Assembly: GCF_001949145.1 (NCBI RefSeq)
Contig: NW_019091358.1
Location: forward strand, 93,984-157,983
Source of the DNA: Acanthaster planci
Lineage: Eukaryota
Direction of reading: 5' to 3'
Length of the DNA: 64,000 nucleotides
Positions 10,277 through 64,000 of this stretch are shown here, piece by piece. The first letter of the stretch is position 1. Every line of letters begins with the position of its first letter. The notes under the pieces were generated by a model. The model made no database searches. It saw nothing but the letters and a program-made list of their open reading frames with translations, and was not told the origin of the DNA. A program made the translations under genes and the position numbers.

Positions 10277-13200
10277 TGGCGTCGGGACTCATTGGTCGAA
10301 TTGACCCATTTAACAGCAAAGAGGAGGACTGGCCAACATGTGAAGCGTCTCGAGCAGTATTTTGAAGCCAATGGAATTGTTAATGAGCGAAAAGTTTCAG
10401 CATTTATCAGCCTCATTGGATGTAAAACATACGGACTGCTCAAGAACCTCACTACTCCAGCCAAGCCATCATCCAAGTCATATGCTGAACTGATTCAGAT
10501 TTTGACAGCACATCTCGCCCCCAAACCCTTGGTGATCGCAGAGCGCTTCCGTTTCCATAAGCGAGATCAGAAGGAGGGGGAACGTATCAGCACCTACCTT
10601 GCCAAGTTACATAAACTGGCTGAACATTGCCATTTTGGCGAATACCTCGACCAGGCACTTCGTGACCGATTTGTCTGTGGCTTGCGGGCAGGTAGCATTC
10701 AAAAACGCCTACTTGCTGAAGATAAGCTGACACTAAAAAGGCAACAAAGATTGCAACGGCGATGGAAACAGCCGCTAAAGATGCCATTAAAGTTCAACAG
10801 CAGACCAATTCCGACCCGACTGTACATGTTGTAGCAAAAGCAAAACATCATGCTGCAGATGTGGCAGATCAGGACATTCTGCTGACACTTGCCGATTCAA
10901 AGATGCAACGTGTCATGCATGGGGAAAAACTGGCCACATAGCACCAGTCTGCCGTTCCAAACCTCGTTCCCAGGGCAACAAACTGCAGTCAAAGCCCAGA
11001 CAACCCCAACCTTGGCGTAAGGGAAAAGTCAAAGTTATGGAAGAAATTCCACAAACAGATGATGAAGATGAGGACATTTTGATAGCCAGAATGAGAGTAC
11101 ACAACGTAGATGGAAACAAATGTGATATGAGCACTGCTGTCTGGGTCACACTCTCCATCAACAACCAGCCAGTAAAGATGGAAGTTGACACAGGGTCAGC
11201 CATCACAATACTATCCATGGCTGACTATGAGAAATTCTTCCAGGGAGACAAGTAACACCCAACCAAGATGAAACTGCAGACTTACACGAGAGAGAAAGTC
11301 TCGCCAGCAGGGTTCTTGGAGGTGAACGTTGAGTACAACAAACAGCGGTACACTGGGAAGATCTACGTCATTGATAGTGGTGGTACCCCATTGCTTGGCC
11401 GTGACTGGCTAGCCCACATTAAATTGAACTGGCCAAAATTATTGGCTCTATCGACGGCTGTGCCCCCAACTACAGGCACGACTGAGGCCAAGCTGAAATC
11501 CCTGTTGAACGAATACCCAGAGCTTTTCACAGAGGAAATTGGTGAATTGACGGGTATCAATGGGAAACTCAACCTGAAGGAGAATGCCCAGCCGGTATTT
11601 GACAGCCAGGCAGGTACCTTATGCCTTACGCCCAAAGTGGAAGCAGAATTGACAAAACTGCAGGAACAAAATATAATTTCCCCTGTAGAGCACAGTGAAT
11701 GGGCAATCCGAATTGTTCCAGTGGCAAAACCGAATGGAGGGGTATGCATTTGTGGTGATTTTAAGGTGACGGTGAATCCAAACCTGAACATCGATCACTT
11801 CCCATTACCCAGAGTGGAAGATTTCCTTGCCACTCTCGCAGGTTGGCAGAAGTATAGCAAACTTGATTTACGGCAAGCATACCTGCACATGGTGATAAAT
11901 TCAGAATCCAAAAAATTACTCACCATAAACACCCACAAAGGTCTGTTTACCTTCAATCGCCTAGCATTTGGAGTAGCCTCTGCACCAGCAATCTGGCAGA
12001 GAACCATGGAACAACTGCTCCAAGGCATACCTGGAGTCCAGTGTATCCTAGATGACATGATTATCACAGGCCGTACTGATGAGGAACACCTCAGCAATCT
12101 GAGGAGGGTCCTTGACGTGCTCAAGCACCATGGCCTGTGCTTGAACAAAGCAAAATGTGTGTTCTTCAAGAACAAAGTGATCTTCTGTGGCCACGAGATA
12201 ACCTTTGAAGGTTTAAAGAAAGCCCAAGACAAGATCAAAGCGGTGAAAGATGCCCCTCATCCTACCAGCGTGAGGCAACTACGCTCATTCCTGGGCTTGG
12301 TGAACTACTATCACTGTTTCCTACCTAATTTGGCAACTGAACTGCATCCACTGAATGAGCTTCTCCAGAAGAGCCACAAGTGGGTGTGGACTCCTACTTG
12401 TGAGAAGGCATTTGAGAAAGCCAAGTCCTTGATCACATCAGATGAAGTTTTGACACACTATGATCCAAGCCTACCTTTGAAGCTGGCATGTGACGCCGCA
12501 CCCTATGGTCTTGGCGCTGTCATGTCACATGTCATGCCTGATGGTACCGAACGCCCAGTAGCCTGTGCGTCACGTACCTTGACGTCGGCTAAATGCAAGT
12601 ATTCCCAGATTGACAAAGAGGCACTTGCGGGGAGTAAAGAAGTTTAACCCGTACCTATCAGGACGAAAGTTCACCATGGTGACGGACCATCAACCCCTGA
12701 CCTGTATCTTCAATTCTGTGAAAAGCACTCCTGTGACTGCAGCAGCACGTCTAGCAAGATATGCAGTCTTCCTTGACAGTCATGATTACAGCATCGAATA
12801 CAAAAACACTGCAAAACACAGCAATGCTGATGGATTATCAAGATTGCCCATGAGCCAGACTGCATCAGAACCAACAGATCCTGTTGACATCCTCCACATG
12901 TCACAACTTGACACACTGCCAGTCTCCAGCAGTGACATCCGCAGGGAAATTACAAAGGACAAAACACTCAAAGTCGTCAACAGACACTGACCCAACCTTG
13001 GCAGCCTACCATAGCCGCAGAAATGAAATCGCTGTACATGATGGTTGCTTGATGTGGGGACTGTGCGTAATAATTCCTGACAAGTTGCACACACAAGTCC
13101 TGAGAGAGCTTCATGAGGGTCATCTGGGTGTTGTCAAGATGGAAACTCTCTCTCAAGGATTTGTTTGGTGGCCCGAAATTGACCACGACATTGAACAGTT

Positions 13201-14247
13201 GGTCAAGGAATGTTCCGGGTGTCAGAAAGTACAACACCCCCGCTAAAGCCCCACTACATACCTGGGAATGGCCTGTAAAACCCTGGCAAAGAATTCACAT
13301 CGACTACGAAGGTCCGTGCATGGGACAGATGTTCCTGGTAGTTGTTGATGCATACTCAAAATGGCCTGAAGTCATCCAAACTACCACCACAACATCCAGC
13401 CAGACCATTGACATCCTCAGGGGCATATTCTCACAACATGGTATCCCTGAACAACTTGTGAGTGACAATGGCCCTCAGTTCATATCGGAGGAATTTCAAA
13501 CCTTCCTGAAACGCAGTGGGGTTCGACACATTACTTCAGCCCCCATATCACCCATCAAAAAACGGGCTTGCAGAGCGTTTTGTTCAAACCTTCAAAAATG
13601 GACTGCAGTCAATGGAAGGGGAGAAAGGGATCAGTAAAGCAGAAGTTGTGCGGCTTTCTTCTTGCTTATCGGAATGCACGACATGCCACTACTGGTCATT
13701 CTCCAGCCTACCTACTCATGGAACGATACCTCCGATCGAGACTGGACATCATAAAACCGGACATACGTCAGCGTGTTGCTCATAAACTGCTTGAGCAATC
13801 CGCCAGTTGCAAATCTGTGAAGCCAACCAGAAACCTGCACAAAGGCCAACATGTGCTGGTTCGTAACTACCGAGATAGCCAGAAGTGGATCCCAGGTGTA
13901 ATCCATTGCCAAACTGGGCCCTTGTAGTACGAGGTTCTAGTCAGCCCAGACTCCATCTGGCACAGACACATTGATCAGCTTCTTGATGCCGATACTGGAA
14001 ACCACACATCTTCAACCAGCAGCCTGAGATGATCCAGCATGACCAAGTGCCCCAGATTATTCCAGACACCACTTACCAGAAGACACTGGATTCTCCAACC
14101 CCTACTCTATCCATGCAGACTCCAGCAGTCATCCATTCTAAAGCAGATCCACTGACTACTTCCAAGGGCCCAATGTCGGAGCCACCTAGCAATGAACGTC
14201 GCTACCCACAGAGGAAATGCAAACCACCAGACAGACTGGATCTCTAA
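10277..14247 (+). pseudogene. gag-pol of the Gypsy element, many frameshifts/stops
   Basis: Fragments 10292-10834, 11037-11255, 11268-12647, 12610-12990, 12884-13246, 13113-13637, 13568-13927 and 14029-14247 fall in gag-PR-RT-RH-IN order. Confidence 0.9.
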
Positions 14248-14786: not shown

Positions 14787-16893
14787 GACGGGATGGTCTA
14801 CCTCTAGGTCGATACACTGGCAAATTTGGTGCACGCAACTTTAAATTTTTGTTCACTAACAATTGTCTAGGTGACAAATAACTGTCTGTGTCACCAATTC
14901 CGTTATACACAAGATAAGAGTTTACAAGAGCAACATCAAGCAAAAATAAGAACACTTTTATACACCATATGATTGATTTCCTGACAGAACGGTGCGATGA
15001 TGCCAGCTGGTCTGCAATGTCCACACCCTTCATCCCCTCGTTGTAGTCGAGTACACACTTGGGTTTCTCCAAGGCAATGCTGTCACGTTCCGCTTGCCGG
15101 TGTCGGCCATCTCAGCTGTATGCATCGTGGACAGCATACGGACATCTTTTTTGTCTCGCCAGACAAAGGTGTGCAAGCCTTTTTTTCCAGAACGGTGAAC
15201 AACATCATCCCTTTCGAGTTTCAAGGAGCACAAGTCCTTGGGCTTGTTTTGACGATTAGTCACACACCCTTCATCCCCTCGTTGTAGTCGAGTACACACT
15301 TGGGTTTCTCCAAGGCAATGCTGTCACGTTCCGCTTGCCGGTGTTGGCCATCTCAGCTGTATGCATCGTGGACAGCATACGGACATCTTTTTTGTCTCGC
15401 CAGACAAAGGTGTGCAAGCCAGAATGGTGAACAACATCATCCCTTTCGAGTTTCAAGGAGCACAAGTCCTTGGGCTTGTTTTGACGATTAGTCTCGCCGT
15501 CCTGATGACGTTTGTCTTCTGGTCGTGCAGTTTCAGGTACAGATCTGGGCTGCTGAACCAGTTGTCCAGGAAAATGCTGTACCCTTTGCCAAGAAGATTG
15601 ACGTTCAAGTCAAGTACAATTTTCGTACTTGCCAGTCCAACAGTCTGGTCTTTACCAGTGTAAATCTTGAAGTTCCAGGTGTATCAAGTGACAACACCTG
15701 TGCTCTGGCAGACTCGACACACCTTGATGCCAAACCTTGCATGCTTCTTGGGGTTGTACTGCTTGAACTTCAGTCTCCCTTTGAATTTCCAAAGGGACTC
15801 ATCGGTAGTAATCTTGCTGGACGGAATGTAGACGGGCTTGATCTCAGCCAGTTCGTCTACCACCTGGCGGAGCTTGTAGAGTCGATCGGTCGCATCTGCA
15901 TGGCTGATATTAACGAAATGCAGATAGGACAGCAAGCCCATAAATCTGTCGCGTGGCATTGTATTAGAAAAAACAGAGTCTCAAGTATTGAGTCTCTTGT
16001 CCAGTAGGACTTCAAGTCGGGTTTCGGCATAAGTCCCATGATGATGGTCATGGACAGGAACACTGACATCTCGTGTGGTGTTGTGTCGAACCAGCTTCGC
16101 ATGTGACTTGGACTTGCTTCTGATTGACTTTCGGATGTTCAGTAGCATAGCGGTTGGTCTCATTGACAATGTGCAACGTCAGCTCTGGGGTGAAGAACTG
16201 CTTGAAGATTTCGACAGGAGTGCTGTTCTTGTCCAGTTCTTGCATTTGAACACCCGCTGTGCCTTGAAAGCCGTGTTGTCAAGTTTTCAGCAACTGTCCA
16301 TTGAATGGACGAAGAAGTCTTGACCTTCTTCTTGGCAGGCCTCGCTAACGGTGGTTGCCTGTTAGAATCGCTGTCACTAGTTTCAATTTCTGAACCATGT
16401 TCAGAGTCCGATGTGAAATCTGAACCACTAGTCGCAGTCAAAGTTTCCTCTTCACTTGAAGACATTGTGTAATGCAACTGAAGGGCCGGGAAGTGGCCAA
16501 GCAAATATATACCCAGCGCTACAGAAAATGCTGCTTTTTGACAAAACAAATAACCAATTACACTGAACAATAGCCCATCTGTATCCCAAGTGTATGGTGC
16601 TGGGGTGCTGCCCACGTGTTCCCAGCCCAGTAGAGCCGTAAACCGTAGCCCGCACACCATGTCAATGACCTGTATTCATCGCGCTCCGAGCCCACATAGA
16701 ACGTGTTGCATAAGCCTTGACCACGACCTCGAGTGATGCTCCACGGAGATTAGCCAGGGTATTCAATCAAAGACAGTAGGGTGTTCTGATGAATAAAAAA
16801 TCCCATTTACCGAGTATCAGGAGATCAACCAACTCTCCAGGTTGCGCCAGATTTCCATTCAATGCAAAGGTCCCAGTAATTACAGATGTACAC
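14787..16893 (-). mobile_element. piggyBac transposon copy 1 (degenerate, both termini missing)
   Basis: Fragments TDESL..FKGRLKFKQYNPKK.ARFGIK, FLDNWF, WRDKKDVRMLST, DYNEGMKGVDIADQ; 5' non-coding region matches copy 2. Confidence 0.9.
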
Positions 16894-17166
16894 TGAATAA
16901 AGGTTGCATGTGTGGTATGCTGCTACAGCTGTCTCCCGGTAATTAGACTTTTCTACAGGCGCAACTGTTGCCTTCTTCCAGCATGAAGTGTTGGGATAAG
17001 ATGAGCTCTTGGTCTTGTGTTCGTAGGTATATTGATGCCAAATGAAAAAAAAGTAACAGTCATTTTAGTCCAAACATTATTGGCTATGCTGACAAATATC
17101 AAACTTGCAAACAAATGCCCTGAAGTGCCCCATATTTGTTGCTTTGTCCTTTTTTATTGTATGCAG

Positions 17167-27169: not shown

Positions 27170-29461
27170 AATCATTCACACTGTGAATTTTAGAAATAAA
27201 ATAACGACTTTGTAAAGAAACGTAGCCAAAAAAAAGGAAAGAAAAAAGAGAGTAGTTGCGTTACACGATTTCTTGAAATAGAGAAAACGTAAGAAAAAGA
27301 CATAAAATGGAGAGTGGTTGCATTACACGATATCTTGGAATACACATTATTGTACATGAAGTAATTGATTCAAGTATAATAAACCTTGAAGGAGTTGCAC
27401 TAAAATTTCATGTACTATTTCATTTACAATGTCTTGGAATACAGGAAATTTCATCTTGCATGGATCTTGCATGCATCTTGGACAGCATACAGGCATTTTT
27501 TTTGTCTTGCCAGACCAAGGCGAGCGAGCCTTGGTCACAGGAGTGGTGAACAACATCTTGAGTTTCAAGGAGCACAAGCCCTTGGGCATATCGAATTTTC
27601 TCACCGTCACGACGACGTTCGTCTTCTGGTCGTGTAGTTTCAAGTACAGTTCGGGGCTGCTGAACCAGTTGTCCAAGAAAATGGTGTACCCTTTGCCAAG
27701 AAGATTGGCATTCAAGTCAAGTACGATTTTCGTACTTGCCAGGCCAACAGTTTGGTCTTGACTGGTGTAAATCTTGAAGTTCCAGGTGTATCCAGGGGCA
27801 ACACCCATGCTCTGGCAGACTCTATACACCTTGATGCCAAACCTTGCATGCTTCTTGGGGTTGTACTGCTTGAACTTCATTCTCCCTTTGAATTTCCCAA
27901 GGAACTTGTCGGTAGTAATGTTGCTAGATGCAATGTAGATGGACTTGAACTCCTCGGTCAGTTCGTCTATCACCAGGTGGAGCTTGAAGAGTTGATCTGT
28001 TGTATCTGCATGGCTGTTATCGATGAAATGCAGATGGGACAGCAAGTCCATAAATCAGTCGCGGGGCATGGTATTAGGGAAAAACAAGAGTCTCAAGTAT
28101 TGAGTCTCTCATCCAGTAGGACTTCATGTCGGGTTTCGGCATCAGTCCCAGGACGATGATCATGGACAGGAACACTGACATCTTGTCTGGTGTTGTGTCG
28201 AACTAGCTTTTCATGTGACTTGGACTTGCTGCTTGACTTTTCGGGTGTTCAGCGGCATAGCGGTTGGTCTCGTTGACTATGTGCAACGTCAACTCTGGGG
28301 TGAAGAACTGCTCGAAGATTTCAACAGGAGTGCTGTTCTTGTCCATTTCTTGCACCTGAACAACCACTATGCCTTGAAAGCCGTGTCGGCGGGGGAAGTT
28401 GTCATCAGCCGTCCATTGAATGGACGAAGTCTTGACCTTCTTCTTGGCAGGCCTCATAGTGAATTCTGGAACAGCTTTCTACACTCCTGCCCTGATAATC
28501 CCACCATTGTCCAGATCTGCAGCTTTTATAATTAAATTCAATGGAAAGGGCAGGGCACTCTATTGAGTAAAGCAGTGTAAAAAGCTTCAATGCTTGCAGC
28601 ATGCCTCTCACTCCTTCGCTGTGCAGCAAAGCTTCAAGAAGCTACTGGTCCACTGAATCCAACTAGCAGTCATTTTATTTTGTTCTACTTGTGTCTGGAT
28701 GTGGGGGTAGGATCCGGCTTGGCAGTGTTTGCTCGTTACGGCAAATATCCCCGCGAAAGGCCACAGTTTCTTAGTATTTATTTTTGTAAATATCTACAAC
28801 AATTTTGCCGGGTCAAGAAATGGCCGGAGAAGACAGAGACTCAAGCTTTTCATTAAGGGGTACTTATTTCTTTTATGTACAACCAAACCTCTAAATACTT
28901 GCTGTTCGACTTTTCAGGTGTTCAACCGCATAGCGGTTGGTCTCGTTGGCAATGAGCAACATCAGCTCTGGGGTGAAGAACTACTCAAAGATTTCGACAG
29001 GAGTGCCGTTCTACTCCAGTTCTTGCACTTGAACACCCGCTGTGCCGGCAGGGGAAGTTGTCATCAAGCGTCCGTTGAGTGGACGAAGAAGTCTTGACCT
29101 TCTTGGCAGGCCTCGCTAATGGTGGTTGCCTGTTAGAATTGCTGTCACTGGTTTAAATTTCTGAACAGATTTCAATGGCATGCACAACATGTCAATGACC
29201 TGTATTCATCGCGCTGCGGGCCCACACAAAGTGCGTTGGATAAGCCCTGACAGCCGAGTCGAGCGACACTCCGCGGAGATTTCACAGGGTATTCAATCAA
29301 AGACAATACGGTGTTCTGATGAAAAAAATCCAATTTACTGGGTATCGTGGGGTCGACCAACTCTCCTAGTTGCTCTAGATTTCCATTCAATGCAAAGCTC
29401 CCAGTAATTACAAATGAACACTCTCCAGGCGCGGTGTTTGCAGTCATCCGGTGCGAAGGGG
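27170..29461 (-). mobile_element. piggyBac transposon copy 2 (degenerate, rearranged 5' part)
   Basis: ORF 27347-28051 (FKGRMKFKQYNPKK, FLDNWFSS). Terminus ccggtgcgaagggg|ttaa at 29448-29465. 5' coding piece duplicated at 28896-29166 around unrelated sequence. 3' region repeated at ~54690-55020. Confidence 0.88.
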
Positions 29462-34475: not shown

Positions 34476-34545
34476 CATCGGCTACATCGATGCCGAAGGG
34501 TTCCTCATCAAAGCGGCCCTCCGCTGGAACGACATAACTCCATTA

Positions 34546-34805
34546 GGGATGGGATCAGAAACACAGAGACCGTTCGCACGTGTTTGCACACATTCCCTTC
34601 CATTCTGCATGCCCTCCCATTCACCCCCGTTCCGAAGGGCACTTCGGAATGAGTTCCTGATCATTCTCTTGCATGAGTGATTCAGAGAGTATTGTTATGT
34701 TAATTGGCCATCCCTGTGTGTGCGAGAACAGCAGCATCACAACAAAGATGTAAAGAACATGCATACCAGCTGTTCTTGAGTCTGTTGGCTAAATGAGTGT
34801 CGACA
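34546..34805 (+). repeat. Dispersed non-coding repeat (MITE-like end); second copy inverted at 59760-60020
   Basis: gggatgggatcag..gagaccgttcgcacg...gcatgagtga.tc.gagagtatt.ttatgttaattg...cacaacaaagatg is shared between the two sites. Confidence 0.75.
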
Positions 34806-58260: not shown

Positions 58261-58625
58261 TCTGCCCAATTGGGAAAGAGGATGTTTCTACCTATCAATT
58301 TGAAAAACAATGGTACTTGCTTGACGCAAATGTTTGTTCCACTCATATACCAAATTATTGACTGACCCAAAGCAAAGGTACAACACCCAGTAGTAGGGAC
58401 CGGTATTTACTAGAGCAGCCCCTCTTTTTCACTTCCTGGATCAGCGCGGGACTTAACCGACTTTCCAGATCAGCGCGGGACTTCCCCAAAAAAATTGTGA
58501 CCCGACTTCCCAAACCGGCAATTGCGGAGCCCCCCAGGACTTTCCACCGACGGAAAATAGCTCAACTCTGGACGATCCAGGAAAACAAAACAAAAACAAT
58601 TTCTCAACGATTTTATAAAAATCAA

Positions 58626-58871
58626 ATGACTCTAGCTTTAGTCACCAAAATCGAATACGCTAAATTAGTCGCCGCTCACGCCACGTGGTTAGTCGTCAAC
58701 GGCTACGAATCACAATGAGATTTAATCGCACAGGCAAAGTTAGACAGGCAAAACCAAAGGCACCGCATTTGTTTAATGAGAAAGACTAAGACTGGCAAAG
58801 AAGTTTACAAGCCGAATGAAATATTTATTTCCGACGATTTATGCGCCGCTAAAAAAATGAAAAATGAATAG
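58626..58871 (+). pseudogene. RNA polymerase subunit Rpb6/RpoK-like protein (one in-frame TGA at 58716-18)
   Basis: MTLALVTKIEYAKLVAAHATWL...*DLIAQAKLD.......ICLMRKTKTGKEVYKPNEIFI aligns by eye with Rpb6 TKYERARVLGTRALQI...DPLQIAMKEL...IIIRR....G..E.W...ELII. Confidence 0.5.
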
Positions 58872-58882
58872 AGACTATATAA

Positions 58883-59116
58883 ATGGAAATGATAAACCAT
58901 AAAACAAACGTGAATTGTTATTTTTGCAAAGACAAGAGAAATTCAGTTGACTTGATGAGATGTAATAACTCCACTTGCGGCGAGTGCGGCAGGTGTATAA
59001 ATTGCGTATATTGTTTAAATTCATACGACTGCCAAAATTCAAGCGCCTTGGACAGTTGCGAAGATTGTTACGATTTGATCTCACGCTGTGAGAAAAAATA
59101 TTTTATGAATGTGTGA
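58883..59116 (+). CDS. Small cysteine-repeat protein (77 aa), function unknown
   Basis: Intact ORF after TATATAAATG with CxxC periodicity (CGECGRCINCVYCLNSYDC...CEDCYDL). Confidence 0.6.
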   Translation: MEMINHKTNVNCYFCKDKRNSVDLMRCNNSTCGECGRCINCVYCLNSYDCQNSSALDSCEDCYDLISRCEKKYFMNV

Positions 59117-59759
59117 TGCCCATTCCGAGTGACAACGTATTTGACGCGTTGCACAGTAATTACGATCATAGAAAATTCACTGGCCATTCATTTTTGTTCA
59201 GACCAAGAGAATGATAAAATAGCAAGGGAATAAAATCAGGAGAGTATTCCAAATAAAGTCTCTGGGGAGCTTTCATCCAACCAAAGATTGACAGCTGACC
59301 CGACCGTCTAGTACAACAGTTGTTCCGGTAGACTTGGTTGCGTCTTCTGATTGACAGCCCGCCTTGGCATTTCTTTTCCTAACACCCTACCCGCCAAATA
59401 TAGTAATACTTCCTTCCTTGACATTTTCTATCCTAACCTAGATCACGTGTGGTTTTTATTAATTTCCACTAACACAACCGCCCAGTTATTTTATTCAGAG
59501 CACCCAACCCACCAAAAATATAAATATTTTTATCCCCCTTGGCATTTCTTTAAGGTTTTAATTTTTTTCTGCACCATGGTCTCTTTTTTATTCCGAGCAC
59601 CCAACCCGCCAATAATATTAATTCTTCCTTCCTATCCTCTGCATTTTCTATCCACACCTTGATCACTTGTGGTTTTTGTTAAGAATGTATAAAATGTGGG
59701 AAGTCGGTACATCAACGGAACAGAATGAGCATTTATAAGAGGGAAGAAAAAACATCTTA

Positions 59760-60020
59760 TCGGACCAAACACTGTTGACACTTATTGAGCCAAGGCTCAA
59801 GAACAGCTTGTATGCACGTTCTTCGCATCTTTGTTGTGACCCTGCCATTCTCGCACGCGCAAGAACGGTCAATTAACATAATAATACTCTCCGAGTCACT
59901 CATGCAAGCGAAGGGGCAGGAACGGGTTCCGAGGTGCTCTTCGGAATGGGGGTGAACGGGAGGGCGTGCAGAACGGAAGGGAACGCGTGCGAACGGTCTC
60001 TATATTTTTGATCCCGTCCC
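59760..60020 (-). repeat. Host dispersed repeat inserted into the pPolB gene
   Basis: Reverse complement of 34546-34805; begins exactly where pPolB homology stops (DKNTEF). Confidence 0.75.
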
Positions 60021-60604
60021 AAACTCGGTATTTTTATCGATATAACTCTTCATCCAAGGCGCTTGTTTAAATGACATCATGTGATGCACCTGTTTTAACT
60101 GGAGACCAAGTTCTAAATATTTCTGCAACGTTCGATAATGAACCACATATTTATTCTTGGTGTTTAAAGTCGACACGAGTTTATCTACCGAGGTACTTCA
60201 CTCACCGTGGGGTGTTAAGTCTTTTTGGTATTCTGACAGCCATTCATTTGGAATCGATATATTTTCCGGTACCAGTGGGAAGTTGTTAATAAGAGGACGT
60301 CCGTCTCGACATATAAATCGTGGTAATCTCCGAGATGACAGCAGTTGAACGTTTTCCATATGTTTTGAGCTCGATAATATTCTTACTCAGTAACAGATGC
60401 CTGCCTCAACGACCTGTAAAAAGTGGCTTGAGGAGGCAGTTGTGATTCTTCAAATTTATCAAAGGAGTTTATGTGTTCGTACGGGTAAATCCCCTTTTCT
60501 AAAAGTAAATCTGCATTATTTGGGAATCTTTCGTGGAGTAGATTAAAATCGTCGGGTGAACAATTCTTAACCAGCCGATCGAGAGATGCAGCCATGAAAT
60601 GAAA
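60021..60604 (-). pseudogene. Protein-primed DNA polymerase B remnant (KGxYPYE type), truncated at both ends and internally deleted
   Basis: FHFMAASLDRLV...KGIYPYEHINSFDKFEESQLPP..FY.SL....*EYYRAQNIWKTF...LGDYHDLYVETDVLLL is joined directly to NFPLVPE...KYVVHYRTLQKYLELG...FKQAPWMKSYIDKNT. Confidence 0.92.
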
Positions 60605-60679
60605 TGTAATTCTTGGTGTTTTTAGTGATGACTTTAATTTTACTCCTGTGCTCCCTGCATAATTAGATACGCGTCGTAT

Positions 60680-60910
60680 TTGCACCTGCTGCGTAAATTG
60701 TGTCGAGTTGGAAGGAATGATCACGTGGTGCTCGTAGACGGTAAGCATAAACAGCTGAGGCACGCGCGAGAAAACGAGCCACTGCCTGATTTAGCGACAA
60801 AACTCGACACGGATTTATACAAAAGTGGATTAATTATTGAATACGACGTTGACATTGAACATTTAATTAAAGTAGAAATCCCACCGAAGTTAATAGACGC
60901 GGCCGAATAA
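60680..60910 (+). pseudogene. 3' part of an unknown viral ORF
   Basis: Open frame ends TAA just before the next gene; 5' end lost near the pPolB breakpoint; no motif recognised. Confidence 0.35.
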
Positions 60911-61776: not shown

Positions 61777-62322
61777 ATGACAGACGCAGAGATTTATCAT
61801 TTAACCGGCTCATTACCTAAATGGCCAACCCCACCATCACGACCAAAAAACATGTGTGATCATTATGTAGTAGAAATAAACGACAGATATGCGTGTAAAC
61901 ATTGTGGTATAATTTTGGGGTGGGTTTCCTCTTACACCCCTGTAGACATGGGAGATAGATATTACAAGCATCACGTTTGGAAAAAAACGCCACCCCCAAA
62001 ATCGAGAAAAACTTTAAAAAAGTTTAACGTTCAATTGGAGAATGGTGAAGCGGGTGAAATAAAATATAAGTTAAATCGAGTTCTAAACGGCAAGATCTCT
62101 AGAGGTAAACTGTTGAAGGCTTTAATTGCGGTATGTTATCAAGACGTGACAAAAGAACCTACAGAAGCCGTAAAAGATCTATTTCAAGTTTCGGATAAGC
62201 ACTGGGAAAACGCCTTTGACAAATTAAACCTCGCCAAACAAGATTTCCAAAAANNNNNNNNNNNNNNNNNNNNNNNNNNNNNNNNNNNNNNNNNNNNNNN
62301 NNNNNNNCGTATAGATTGCTAA
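61777..62322 (+). CDS. TFIIB-like protein (Zn ribbon plus one cyclin-fold repeat); 3' end in gap
   Basis: CDH...YACKHCGIILG zinc ribbon and RVLNGKISRGKLLKALIAVCY, matching the TFIIB RG....A..AC helix. Confidence 0.65.
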   Translation: MTDAEIYHLTGSLPKWPTPPSRPKNMCDHYVVEINDRYACKHCGIILGWVSSYTPVDMGDRYYKHHVWKKTPPPKSRKTLKKFNVQLENGEAGEIKYKLNRVLNGKISRGKLLKALIAVCYQDVTKEPTEAVKDLFQVSDKHWENAFDKLNLAKQDFQKXXXXXXXXXXXXXXXXXXRIDC

Positions 62323-62383: not shown

Positions 62384-63536
62384 ATGGAGACTCACACGTT
62401 TTACTTAACCGAGAGCGAGCAGACGTTTAAATTGAAAGATGTCCTTAAAAACACCAAAGGCGACAAAGTCGTCCGAGTAAAGAATATTCAGTTTGAAGCT
62501 GGATATTTTAACGTAACAAAAGCGGCTGAAATTGAGTGGGATACAAACTTGGACGCTAGGCCCGCGGGGGTCCGTGGCGAACGACCGCCTGGAATACCTT
62601 CAGAGGAAAGAACGGAAGTATCTCCCAATTCAGAATTAGTACAAACAGCTAAAACCAGATTGATCCCAGCAAATAAAAAAGGCACTTTAGCAGAAGAAAT
62701 CAGCATCATCGCTGAGGAAATTGAGCAGCTAAACCAAGAAATCGCAACTTTGGAAGAGCAGTTAAACCAAAAACAACCATTAGAAACGCGAGCTCGTTTA
62801 GCTTATGATATCAACGATAAAAAAGTCAAATCAGCTTCACTGCTCGAGGGGCAAAGACAAGCCTTGGATGAAATTTATGAAGGGAATCCCCCAGCTCAAC
62901 ATACAATAAACTCCCCCGTACAACCCACGAGACCCAGAAGAGAATTAATTAAAAGACTTTTTTTGACGGGGCTAACAGAACTTATATACGATAGACTTCA
63001 TTCTTGAAGCTCATCTCAACCATTACCCGAGAGTAGGAAGCATCGTGGTATCCCCCGGTTATTATAACATGGACTGGTTTCACTTTTTGTTAAACTCGAT
63101 TCCAGGCGTTTCTTTTAAGGTTCACTCAGAATCTAAAAGGGTGACTTTGGCCATTACGGACCCCAATCTCAAGTTGCAACTAAATAAAGAAGTGTCTAAG
63201 CCATTGAACCTACCCAAAATAAAACTTTTACCCAACGTCATTTATGAAGGCAAGTACCATTTAAACCCCTTGAAACTCACGTTTATTCATTGCAAACAAT
63301 TAAATACATTTGACAACTTTTACAACGGGCAGTCTTCAGACTTGCTATACGTGATTGCTACCAAGCCTTGCACCTCAACACTCGTGACGTGTAAAACGTC
63401 TAAAAAGTTAATACACAGAAACATCAGTGAATTGACTTTTTCTGTTAAAAACGATCGAGGTGAGCTCTTGAATAATATCGGCAAAATATTAATCAAGTTA
63501 GACATTTTAAAAAACGTGTATATAATAAAAAGATGA
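62384..63536 (+). pseudogene. Minor capsid protein (penton)-like, frameshifted near 62960-63000, with an internal coiled-coil insertion
   Basis: N-terminal beta-strand region to GYFNVT; C-terminal VSPGYYN...FIHCKQL...FYNGQSSDLL...ISELTFSVKNDRGELL....I.IKLDI fits the Polinton penton pattern. Confidence 0.7.
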
Positions 63537-64000
63537 CGACTAACGTATACCCAGATTTAAGTAAACACCCCGATTTGACTTTAAACTCGGCCAAACAAGC
63601 GGAGACTAAAATTTATTGCCTTCGAAAGATCGAAGAAATTAAATCTCGTATCCAAAGAGAACGCGACGTGCGGAAAACTACCTACAAAAAGATTAAACAG
63701 GTTACGTAGAGTATGGTGTAGATGCACTGGGCGCGACCTCAGCAGCCGTCGCAATTCCCGCCAATTGGGGCATCGTTACCGGACCCGTCGGACTTGTGAT
63801 GGAAGGCATCGCTATCGGTGTGTTGGATGTTTACGCTTCGCTAAAATATGCCAGTCGCCAATTAACTCACAAAACTTAAAAGCACGACTGAATTCGAATA
63901 TTTGCGGACGCTAAATTAAACACGATCGAGGAATACGTATCTCACCCGATTGAAGATGGTGATATATCCTAGGAGGAATTTGTACTCATTTTATCCGAGA
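63533..64000 (+). pseudogene. Conserved Polinton membrane-helix protein (partial, disrupted)
   Basis: VYPDL...YCLRKIEEI...ERDVR...YKK, hydrophobic GVDALGATSAAVA...GPVGLVMEGIAIGVL, then KHD*IRIFADAKLNTI...DGDIS*EEFVLILSE. Confidence 0.7.

Follow-up and report, generated by a model that had tools for sequence, protein, structure and literature searches.

The reading frame at 58626..58871 (+ strand) is interrupted by an internal stop codon and lies next to the end of a repeated stretch of DNA. This raises the question of whether the frame is a gene at all, and if it is, whether its product belongs to the Rpb6/RpoK/omega family of RNA polymerase subunits, as proposed in the first-pass annotation. 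Both points were addressed in the window, which is the whole 64,000-nt stretch of DNA that was analysed, and in contigs from public runs. Our reading, to which we assign a probability of about 0.7, is that the frame is likely a real gene of the element, broken in this copy, and that it is not demonstrable as an Rpb6.

The reading frame and its predicted product

The frame starts with an ATG at 58626-58628, ends with a TAG at 58869-58871 and contains a single in-frame TGA at codon 31 (58716-58718). Reading through this stop yields 81 codons, which confirmed the earlier description of one gene split by one TGA. ORF calling with table 11 cut the small gene into two pieces (58497..58718 and 58776..58871). 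The same procedure found 56 ORFs of at least 25 aa within 3.5 kb. Since such ORFs are common by chance in the window, the length of the frame is no proof of a gene, and the case for it depends on the comparison with other copies.

With the break omitted from the peptide, the product has a mass of ~9.2 kDa and a pI of 9.4. The pI is 6.5 for the N-terminal 30 residues and 9.2 for residues 32-75. AlphaFold2 in the single-sequence mode yielded a model (mean pLDDT 50.4, pTM 0.35) of too low quality for a fold comparison with Rpb6; in it, a helix at residues 8-24 was followed by strands.

A TATAAA motif was found at 58614..58619 (+), six bases upstream of the ATG of the small gene. In five ORFs of the element, a scan of the upstream 40 bases revealed TATAAA, TATATAA or TAATAAAA, separated from the ATG by 0-12 bases. 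These motifs are located at 58614, 58876, 61768, 62373 and 63519, and the ORFs after the small gene start at 58883, 61777, 62384 and 63533. The spacing between motif and ATG is shorter than expected for a TATA box. Start-proximal promoters are found in cytoplasmic large DNA viruses and virophages, and the spacing observed here is nearer to theirs than to that of a Pol II TATA box. We infer a promoter role for the TATAAA-type motifs. The small gene would then be expressed, now or formerly, from its upstream motif, as its neighbours would be from theirs.

Variation among copies in the host genome

At least half of the sampled words of 58380-59300 are contained in 19 public runs from 10 studies, none of them recorded as RNA. 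We mapped the contigs of X1, X2, X8 and X15, DNA runs from four different studies, to 58300-59300 at 80% likeness, which placed 316, 341, 317 and 315 contigs, respectively. Coverage of 58617-58870 was many-fold, and the small gene was represented by 12-25 contigs per run, mostly 80-95% alike. The summed depth across the gene was 600-1,800, as compared with 63.6 for the sole identical contig in X1. We estimate that there are roughly 15-25 diverged copies of the small gene per genome. Within the 64,000 nt of the window, tblastn and blastn detected no further copies.

The internal TGA turned out to be private to the window copy, because nearly all other copies differ in its first letter and read a sense codon at 58716. 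The differing letter was carried by 14 contigs in X1 (890.6 of the summed depth of 954.2), 21 in X2 (1542.5 of 1597.5), 12 in X8 (224.7 of 234.2) and 11 in X15 (77.8 of 87.3). It amounted to 93-97% of the summed depth in X1 and X2. The site of the TGA has a CpG context in the other copies. These findings bear out the CGA>TGA decay that the first-pass annotation had suspected, the stop being confined to the window copy and lying at a CpG in the others (X1, X2, X8 and X15). That annotation had also suggested a search for stop-free copies. The TGA is not general among the copies, and a sense codon is found at 58716 in nearly all of them; with contigs of 130-430 bases, no single other copy was demonstrated to be open from start to stop.

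The end of the frame differs as well. At codon 76 (58851..58853, +), most other copies have a stop codon. The variant at 58851 was supported by 12 contigs in X1 (500.5 of a depth of 675.4) and nine contigs in X2 (474.9 of 617.5). The usual product is therefore 75 residues long, and the final six residues of the window copy are, judging from these copies, outside the conserved protein.

A second mapping used contigs of X1, X2 and X20 against 58590-58900. The RNA label of X20 is a guess; this run yielded a single contig (264 nt, depth 3) that matches 58590-58843 exactly and is uninformative on expression. From this mapping, we classified the 38 best-supported variants within codons 1-75 among the variants listed, with 56 more beyond these. 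The 38 variants were distributed over codon positions 1, 2 and 3 as 13, 4 and 21 (chi-square p 0.003). In the frame of the gene, the ratio of synonymous to non-synonymous changes was 20:18; the two remaining + strand frames gave 11:27 and 5:33. If changes of the same spectrum were placed at random, a synonymous share of 0.33 would be expected, whereas 20 of the 38 were observed (binomial p 0.008). The residue changes between the copies were mostly mild (I/V, V/I, M/V, T/A and E/Q). Indels within the small gene were rare and restricted to one contig each, at five places in X1 and two in X2. One other internal stop-gain was present among the variants listed, at 58688 (codon 21), in four of ~20 contigs. 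Since roughly every second listed variant is non-synonymous, the constraint is moderate, and some members of the family may themselves be in decay. Judged by this pattern of variation, the copies of the small gene make up a genuine protein-coding family, moderately constrained.

The strongest competitor of this reading is that there is no gene and the frame is open by chance in repeated, decaying DNA of the element. A chance frame would account neither for the bias in codon positions nor for a synonymous excess that appears in the gene frame only. It would also leave unexplained that the reading frame is free of indels in nearly all contigs at 10-20% divergence, that the start-proximal A/T motif is common to the neighbouring ORFs and that other copies retain the order of the small gene and the next ORF. 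Against these points stand the frequency of ORFs of similar length in the window, the 18 of the 38 listed variants that change a residue, the four contigs with a stop at codon 21, and the fact that no homologue was obtained from Pfam, PDB, PHROGs, the word-indexed search or 1.84 billion proteins. On balance, we consider a chance frame unlikely.

Comparison with Rpb6 and other protein families

The Rpb6/RpoK/omega family (PF01192) includes viral members such as ASFV C147L and vaccinia Rpo19 (PMC10881513 and PMC11711665). The first-pass annotation had assigned the read-through peptide to this family and had tied the assignment to a match with the Rpb6 profile. No such match was found: hmmscan of the small-gene peptide against Pfam returned zero families at E up to 10 and hence no PF01192, for which the curated cut-off is 26 bits. 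In the PDB, phmmer found zero chains at E up to 10, although eukaryotic, archaeal and ASFV homologues of Rpb6 are present there. A phmmer search of 1.84 billion representative proteins retrieved no Rpb6 either, its single match being a PAS kinase.

For a directed comparison, five archaeal RpoK genes (alignment A1) were combined with 120 family members into a 125-sequence alignment. BLASTP against one RpoK from the Sulfolobales aligned the first helix only, with 9 of 21 residues identical and a pairwise E of 8e-4. With hhalign, the probability reached 10.5% for A1 and 3.4% for the 125-sequence alignment, again covering the first helix only. The local hhalign score of 18.59 was matched by 2 of 183 shuffles, whereas 40 of 183 shuffles matched the whole-length score of 4.55. 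An unfiltered HMM of the 125 RpoK sequences gave 3.8 bits for the small-gene peptide, a value reached by 16 of 2000 shuffles and equivalent to an E of ~80 at the Pfam scale. The likeness of the first helix to RpoK thus has a p of ~0.01, uncorrected for the fact that the family was chosen after viewing the peptide.

Inspection of the invariant N-terminal columns of A1 (E, A-R, A-R-A-L-Q and G-A-P) showed that 4 of the 11 are kept in the small-gene product, namely E10, A12, A17 and A19. The changed columns have K for R, H for R, T for L, W for Q and N-G-Y for G-A-P. The second helix and the C-terminal strands (P-I-x-I-R-R) displayed no likeness above chance, and the local alignments ended after helix 1. 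Since the whole-length score was no better than that of shuffled sequences, the second half of the peptide adds nothing to the Rpb6 likeness. The earlier claim that both halves independently follow the Rpb6 pattern therefore holds in part: the first helix does resemble helix 1 of RpoK (9/21), whereas the second half is at the level of shuffled sequence.

The sensitivity of the comparison was gauged with known members. The five-sequence A1 profile found RpoK, eukaryotic Rpb6 at E 1e-20 to 1e-26 and ASFV C147L at E 2e-6 (~31 bits). Bacterial omega was detected only at E 0.42, and vaccinia Rpo19 was not found by this profile. Extremely divergent members of the family can accordingly escape such tests.

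These results bear on the possibility that the product is a divergent, minimal Rpb6/RpoK-like subunit, which, as a replacement or a decoy, would bind the largest subunit of RNA polymerase. The alignment of the first helix and the small number of shuffles that reach its local score (2 of 183) or the HMM score (16 of 2000) are compatible with this idea. So are the 75 aa and the helix placement, which agree with the short RpoK forms of archaea (76-81 aa), and residue 9, which in nearly all other copies is the aromatic typical of the family at that position. A forced whole-length alignment is also co-linear, as had been described earlier, and true members such as omega and Rpo19 can be very divergent. 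Nevertheless, no match emerged from PF01192, the PDB or the 1.84 billion proteins, the hhalign probabilities were low (10.5% and 3.4%), and the seven lost invariant columns include both arginines, L-Q and G-A-P. The p of ~0.01 takes no account of the many families open to choice, at the Pfam scale the 3.8 bits correspond to E ~80, and 40 of 183 shuffles attain the whole-length score. The literature search did not retrieve any paper combining 'Rpb6' and 'Polinton'. Among 15 of the 214 papers on virophages, Mavericks, adintoviruses or PLVs, none contained 'Rpb6', and the excerpt of PMC11296320 contains no mention of promoters or RNA polymerase. We regard a divergent Rpb6/RpoK-like subunit as very unlikely. 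With the Rpb6 identity unsupported, the proposal of a decoy or replacement for the host Rpb6 loses its support as well. It is similarly hard to credit that the element family encodes, as its first gene, an extremely divergent subunit of this kind that would use or compete for the Rpb6 site of a polymerase, be it of the host or of a helper virus. If the Rpb6 reading were true, the gene would be the first polymerase subunit in Polinton-type small DNA viruses and would hint at tampering with host transcription. As it stands, the case is a worked example of a motif-level likeness (p ~0.01 versus shuffles) that fails family-level tests.

The other libraries were equally silent. PHROGs contained zero matches for the small-gene peptide, and no ORF of the element reached an E below 0.0095 there. 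A word-indexed protein search with the read-through peptide gave no candidate. Scans of IMG/VR with the small-gene peptide and with the 163-aa neighbour returned none, and a metagenome scan with the small-gene peptide hit two loci, both chance matches to one 8-residue pattern. The C-terminal 50 residues had no usable match in the ESM Atlas. As far as the protein libraries searched can tell, the small-gene product is an orphan with no detectable relative.

The PAS kinase mentioned above, P0005, is a bacterial multi-PAS histidine kinase of 1218 aa and the only match among the 1.84 billion proteins. It aligned with residues 9-51 through six repeats, with a summed E of 2.2e-8; in pairwise BLASTP, E ranged from 6e-5 to 0.011, with 19-31% identity and 21-28 bits. 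A reading of the small gene as part of, or related to, a PAS-type sensor domain can be dismissed as having a negligible probability, because the near-identical repeats of this one protein count a single weak likeness six times, no Pfam PAS family was found at E up to 10, and a PAS fold takes ~110 residues, more than the 75 available. The P0005 case illustrates that a repeat protein can inflate one weak likeness to an E of 2e-8.

The HU/IHF family (PF00216) served as a control family, picked from a by-eye likeness in the C-terminal half, and was negative. There was no Pfam hit, an 11-sequence HU profile gave 0.8 bits (matched by 303 of 2000 shuffles), and hhalign resulted in a local score of 10.56 and a probability of 0.25%. 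This candidate was rejected.

The element and its relation to known systems

Left of ~58368, the DNA is single-copy and represented by one identical contig, and repeated DNA starts near 58368-58402. In X1, the depth rises from 63.6 at 58300-58367 to 186-500 at 58368-58435. The stretch at 58368..58537 is a subterminal part of the repeated element; it contains short direct repeats and was found, in pieces, at ~2-8 times the single-copy depth. Its direct repeats at 58431-58454 and 58460-58483 are 88% alike. One contig per run joins 58434 to 58599, so the spacer before the small gene varies among the copies. The earlier placement of the gene directly inside a terminal region was borne out: the small gene comes first inside the terminus of a virus-like element that exists in multiple copies. 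It adjoins the terminus and would be transcribed inward.

The next gene is a 77-aa cysteine-rich ORF at 58883..59116 (+), which adjoins the small gene in other copies too. A contig of X1 (record 2; 58617-58923) runs from the small gene into this ORF. The summed depth in X1 was 4,300-27,700 in most bins of 58878-59183, as compared with 63.6 for single-copy DNA; the small gene reached 600-1,800. The ORF also contains many loose contig ends and joints. This high repetition, together with the loose ends and joints, indicates that the 77-aa ORF belongs to a large family with several variants. It had no Pfam hit, and its matches in PDB (none below E 0.02) and PHROGs were at chance level only.

Further short ORFs on the + strand follow to the right, at 61777, 62384, 63045 and 63533. 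The 181-codon ORF at 61777-62322 (+) is interrupted by a run of N at 62255-62307. It has a zinc-ribbon-like start (C-x-H ... C-x-x-C) and a helical part after it, which we take to be reminiscent of TFIIB; neither Pfam nor PDB provided a significant match (none below E 0.02 in PDB). The 163-aa ORF at 63045-63536 (+) has only three relatives (P0002-P0004), all unnamed. In these relatives, 62384-63007 and 63045-63536 form one gene, which is frameshifted in the window. In the Atlas, 63045-63536 lies closest to viral clusters (0.96 to 0.95); among named clusters, the Sputnik/virophage minor capsid protein V18/19 is the nearest (0.93). A relationship to virophage penton-like or minor capsid proteins is a lead only. 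An AlphaFold2 model of 63045-63533 built with four sequences had a pLDDT of 48, too poor for a comparison with the jelly-roll fold.

On the opposite strand, three adjoining open pieces in different frames span 60003-60790 (-). They contain K-G-x-Y-P-Y-E, D-Y-H-D-L-Y and Y-I-D-x-N-T motifs, presumably as in the protein-primed DNA polymerases of animal elements. By these motifs, the pieces look like a decayed polymerase gene; no polymerase match was obtained in Pfam, PHROGs or PDB (none below E 0.02 in PDB). The region from 59793 to 60023, inside the virus-like element and beside the polymerase-like remnants, forms an inverted pair with 34543-34783. The repeat is 200-240 bases long, its arms are 83-86% alike, and it is probably a small transposon insertion.

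Other mobile DNA is present elsewhere in the window, which is eukaryotic DNA. A Gypsy-type reverse transcriptase/RNase H/integrase was detected at 11268-13637 (+), and the rve match at 13113-13637 belongs to this retroelement, far from the element of the small gene. A fragment of a piggyBac-type transposase (DDE_Tnp_1_7) was found at 27347-28051 (-). Several direct repeats with 12-kb spacing (15485-16894 versus 27592-29422) point to duplicated transposon copies.

The element of the small gene continues past the end of the window at 64000, and its other end is outside the window. Within the window, no inverted copy of 58368-58600 was found. The element is multi-copy and dispersed in the host genome, as seen from the 12-25 contigs per run over the gene versus the single-copy left flank. 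Polintons/Mavericks have core genes for polymerase, integrase, ATPase, protease and capsid, with variable genes beside them. In the 5.6 kb of the element within the window, no gene for polymerase B, rve integrase, packaging ATPase, protease or major capsid protein was confirmed. 'Polinton-like' is therefore a reasonable, though provisional, label for it.

The best reading of these data is that the small gene is a lineage-specific accessory gene of a virus-like (Polinton-like) element present in many copies, where it comes first inside one terminus, and that it is pseudogenised in this copy. Its product would act for the element and not for the host, perhaps by binding DNA or a partner protein early in the element cycle. 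A nucleic-acid-binding or regulatory role of this kind is a tentative suggestion, which we hold to be possible rather than probable. It is drawn solely from the small size, the positive charge (pI 9.4), the predicted helix with a basic, hairpin-like C-terminal half, and the position at the terminus. More widely, a single private stop concealed this frame from ORF callers, and yet it appears to be a genuine gene, lineage-specific and under constraint, of a virus-like element.

Known systems resemble the small gene to different degrees. The product of 75 aa is comparable in length with the archaeal RpoK chains of 57-95 aa, its N-terminal helix (T-K/R-x-E-x-A-K/R...A-x-A) resembles helix 1 of RpoK, and its basic C-terminal part can be placed co-linearly on the family. 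It differs in failing the family profile and in lacking 7 of the 11 invariant N-terminal residues; with a five-sequence profile, ASFV C147L obtains ~31 bits, whereas the small-gene product does not. ASFV also has an HU/IHF-type protein. Like HU/IHF, the small-gene product is small and basic and, by eye, has a helix followed by an R-x-x-x-T-G-x-E-V-x-x-P stretch; unlike them, it has no family profile match.

The closest parallel is offered by the lineage-specific accessory ORFs of Polintons/Mavericks, adintoviruses and Polinton-like viruses (PMC8502044 and PMC8097293). The element of the small gene differs from these in that the core genes are unconfirmed in its part inside the window and in that its A/T-rich motifs stand directly at the ATGs and not at the distance of a TATA box. 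In common with such accessory ORFs, the small gene is short, lacks detectable homologues and lies close to the terminus of an element present in many copies. Other short ORFs follow it in a tight head-to-tail arrangement, and one of them carries the virophage-penton-like lead. By this comparison, the small gene would be one more orphan in the accessory gene pool of such elements.
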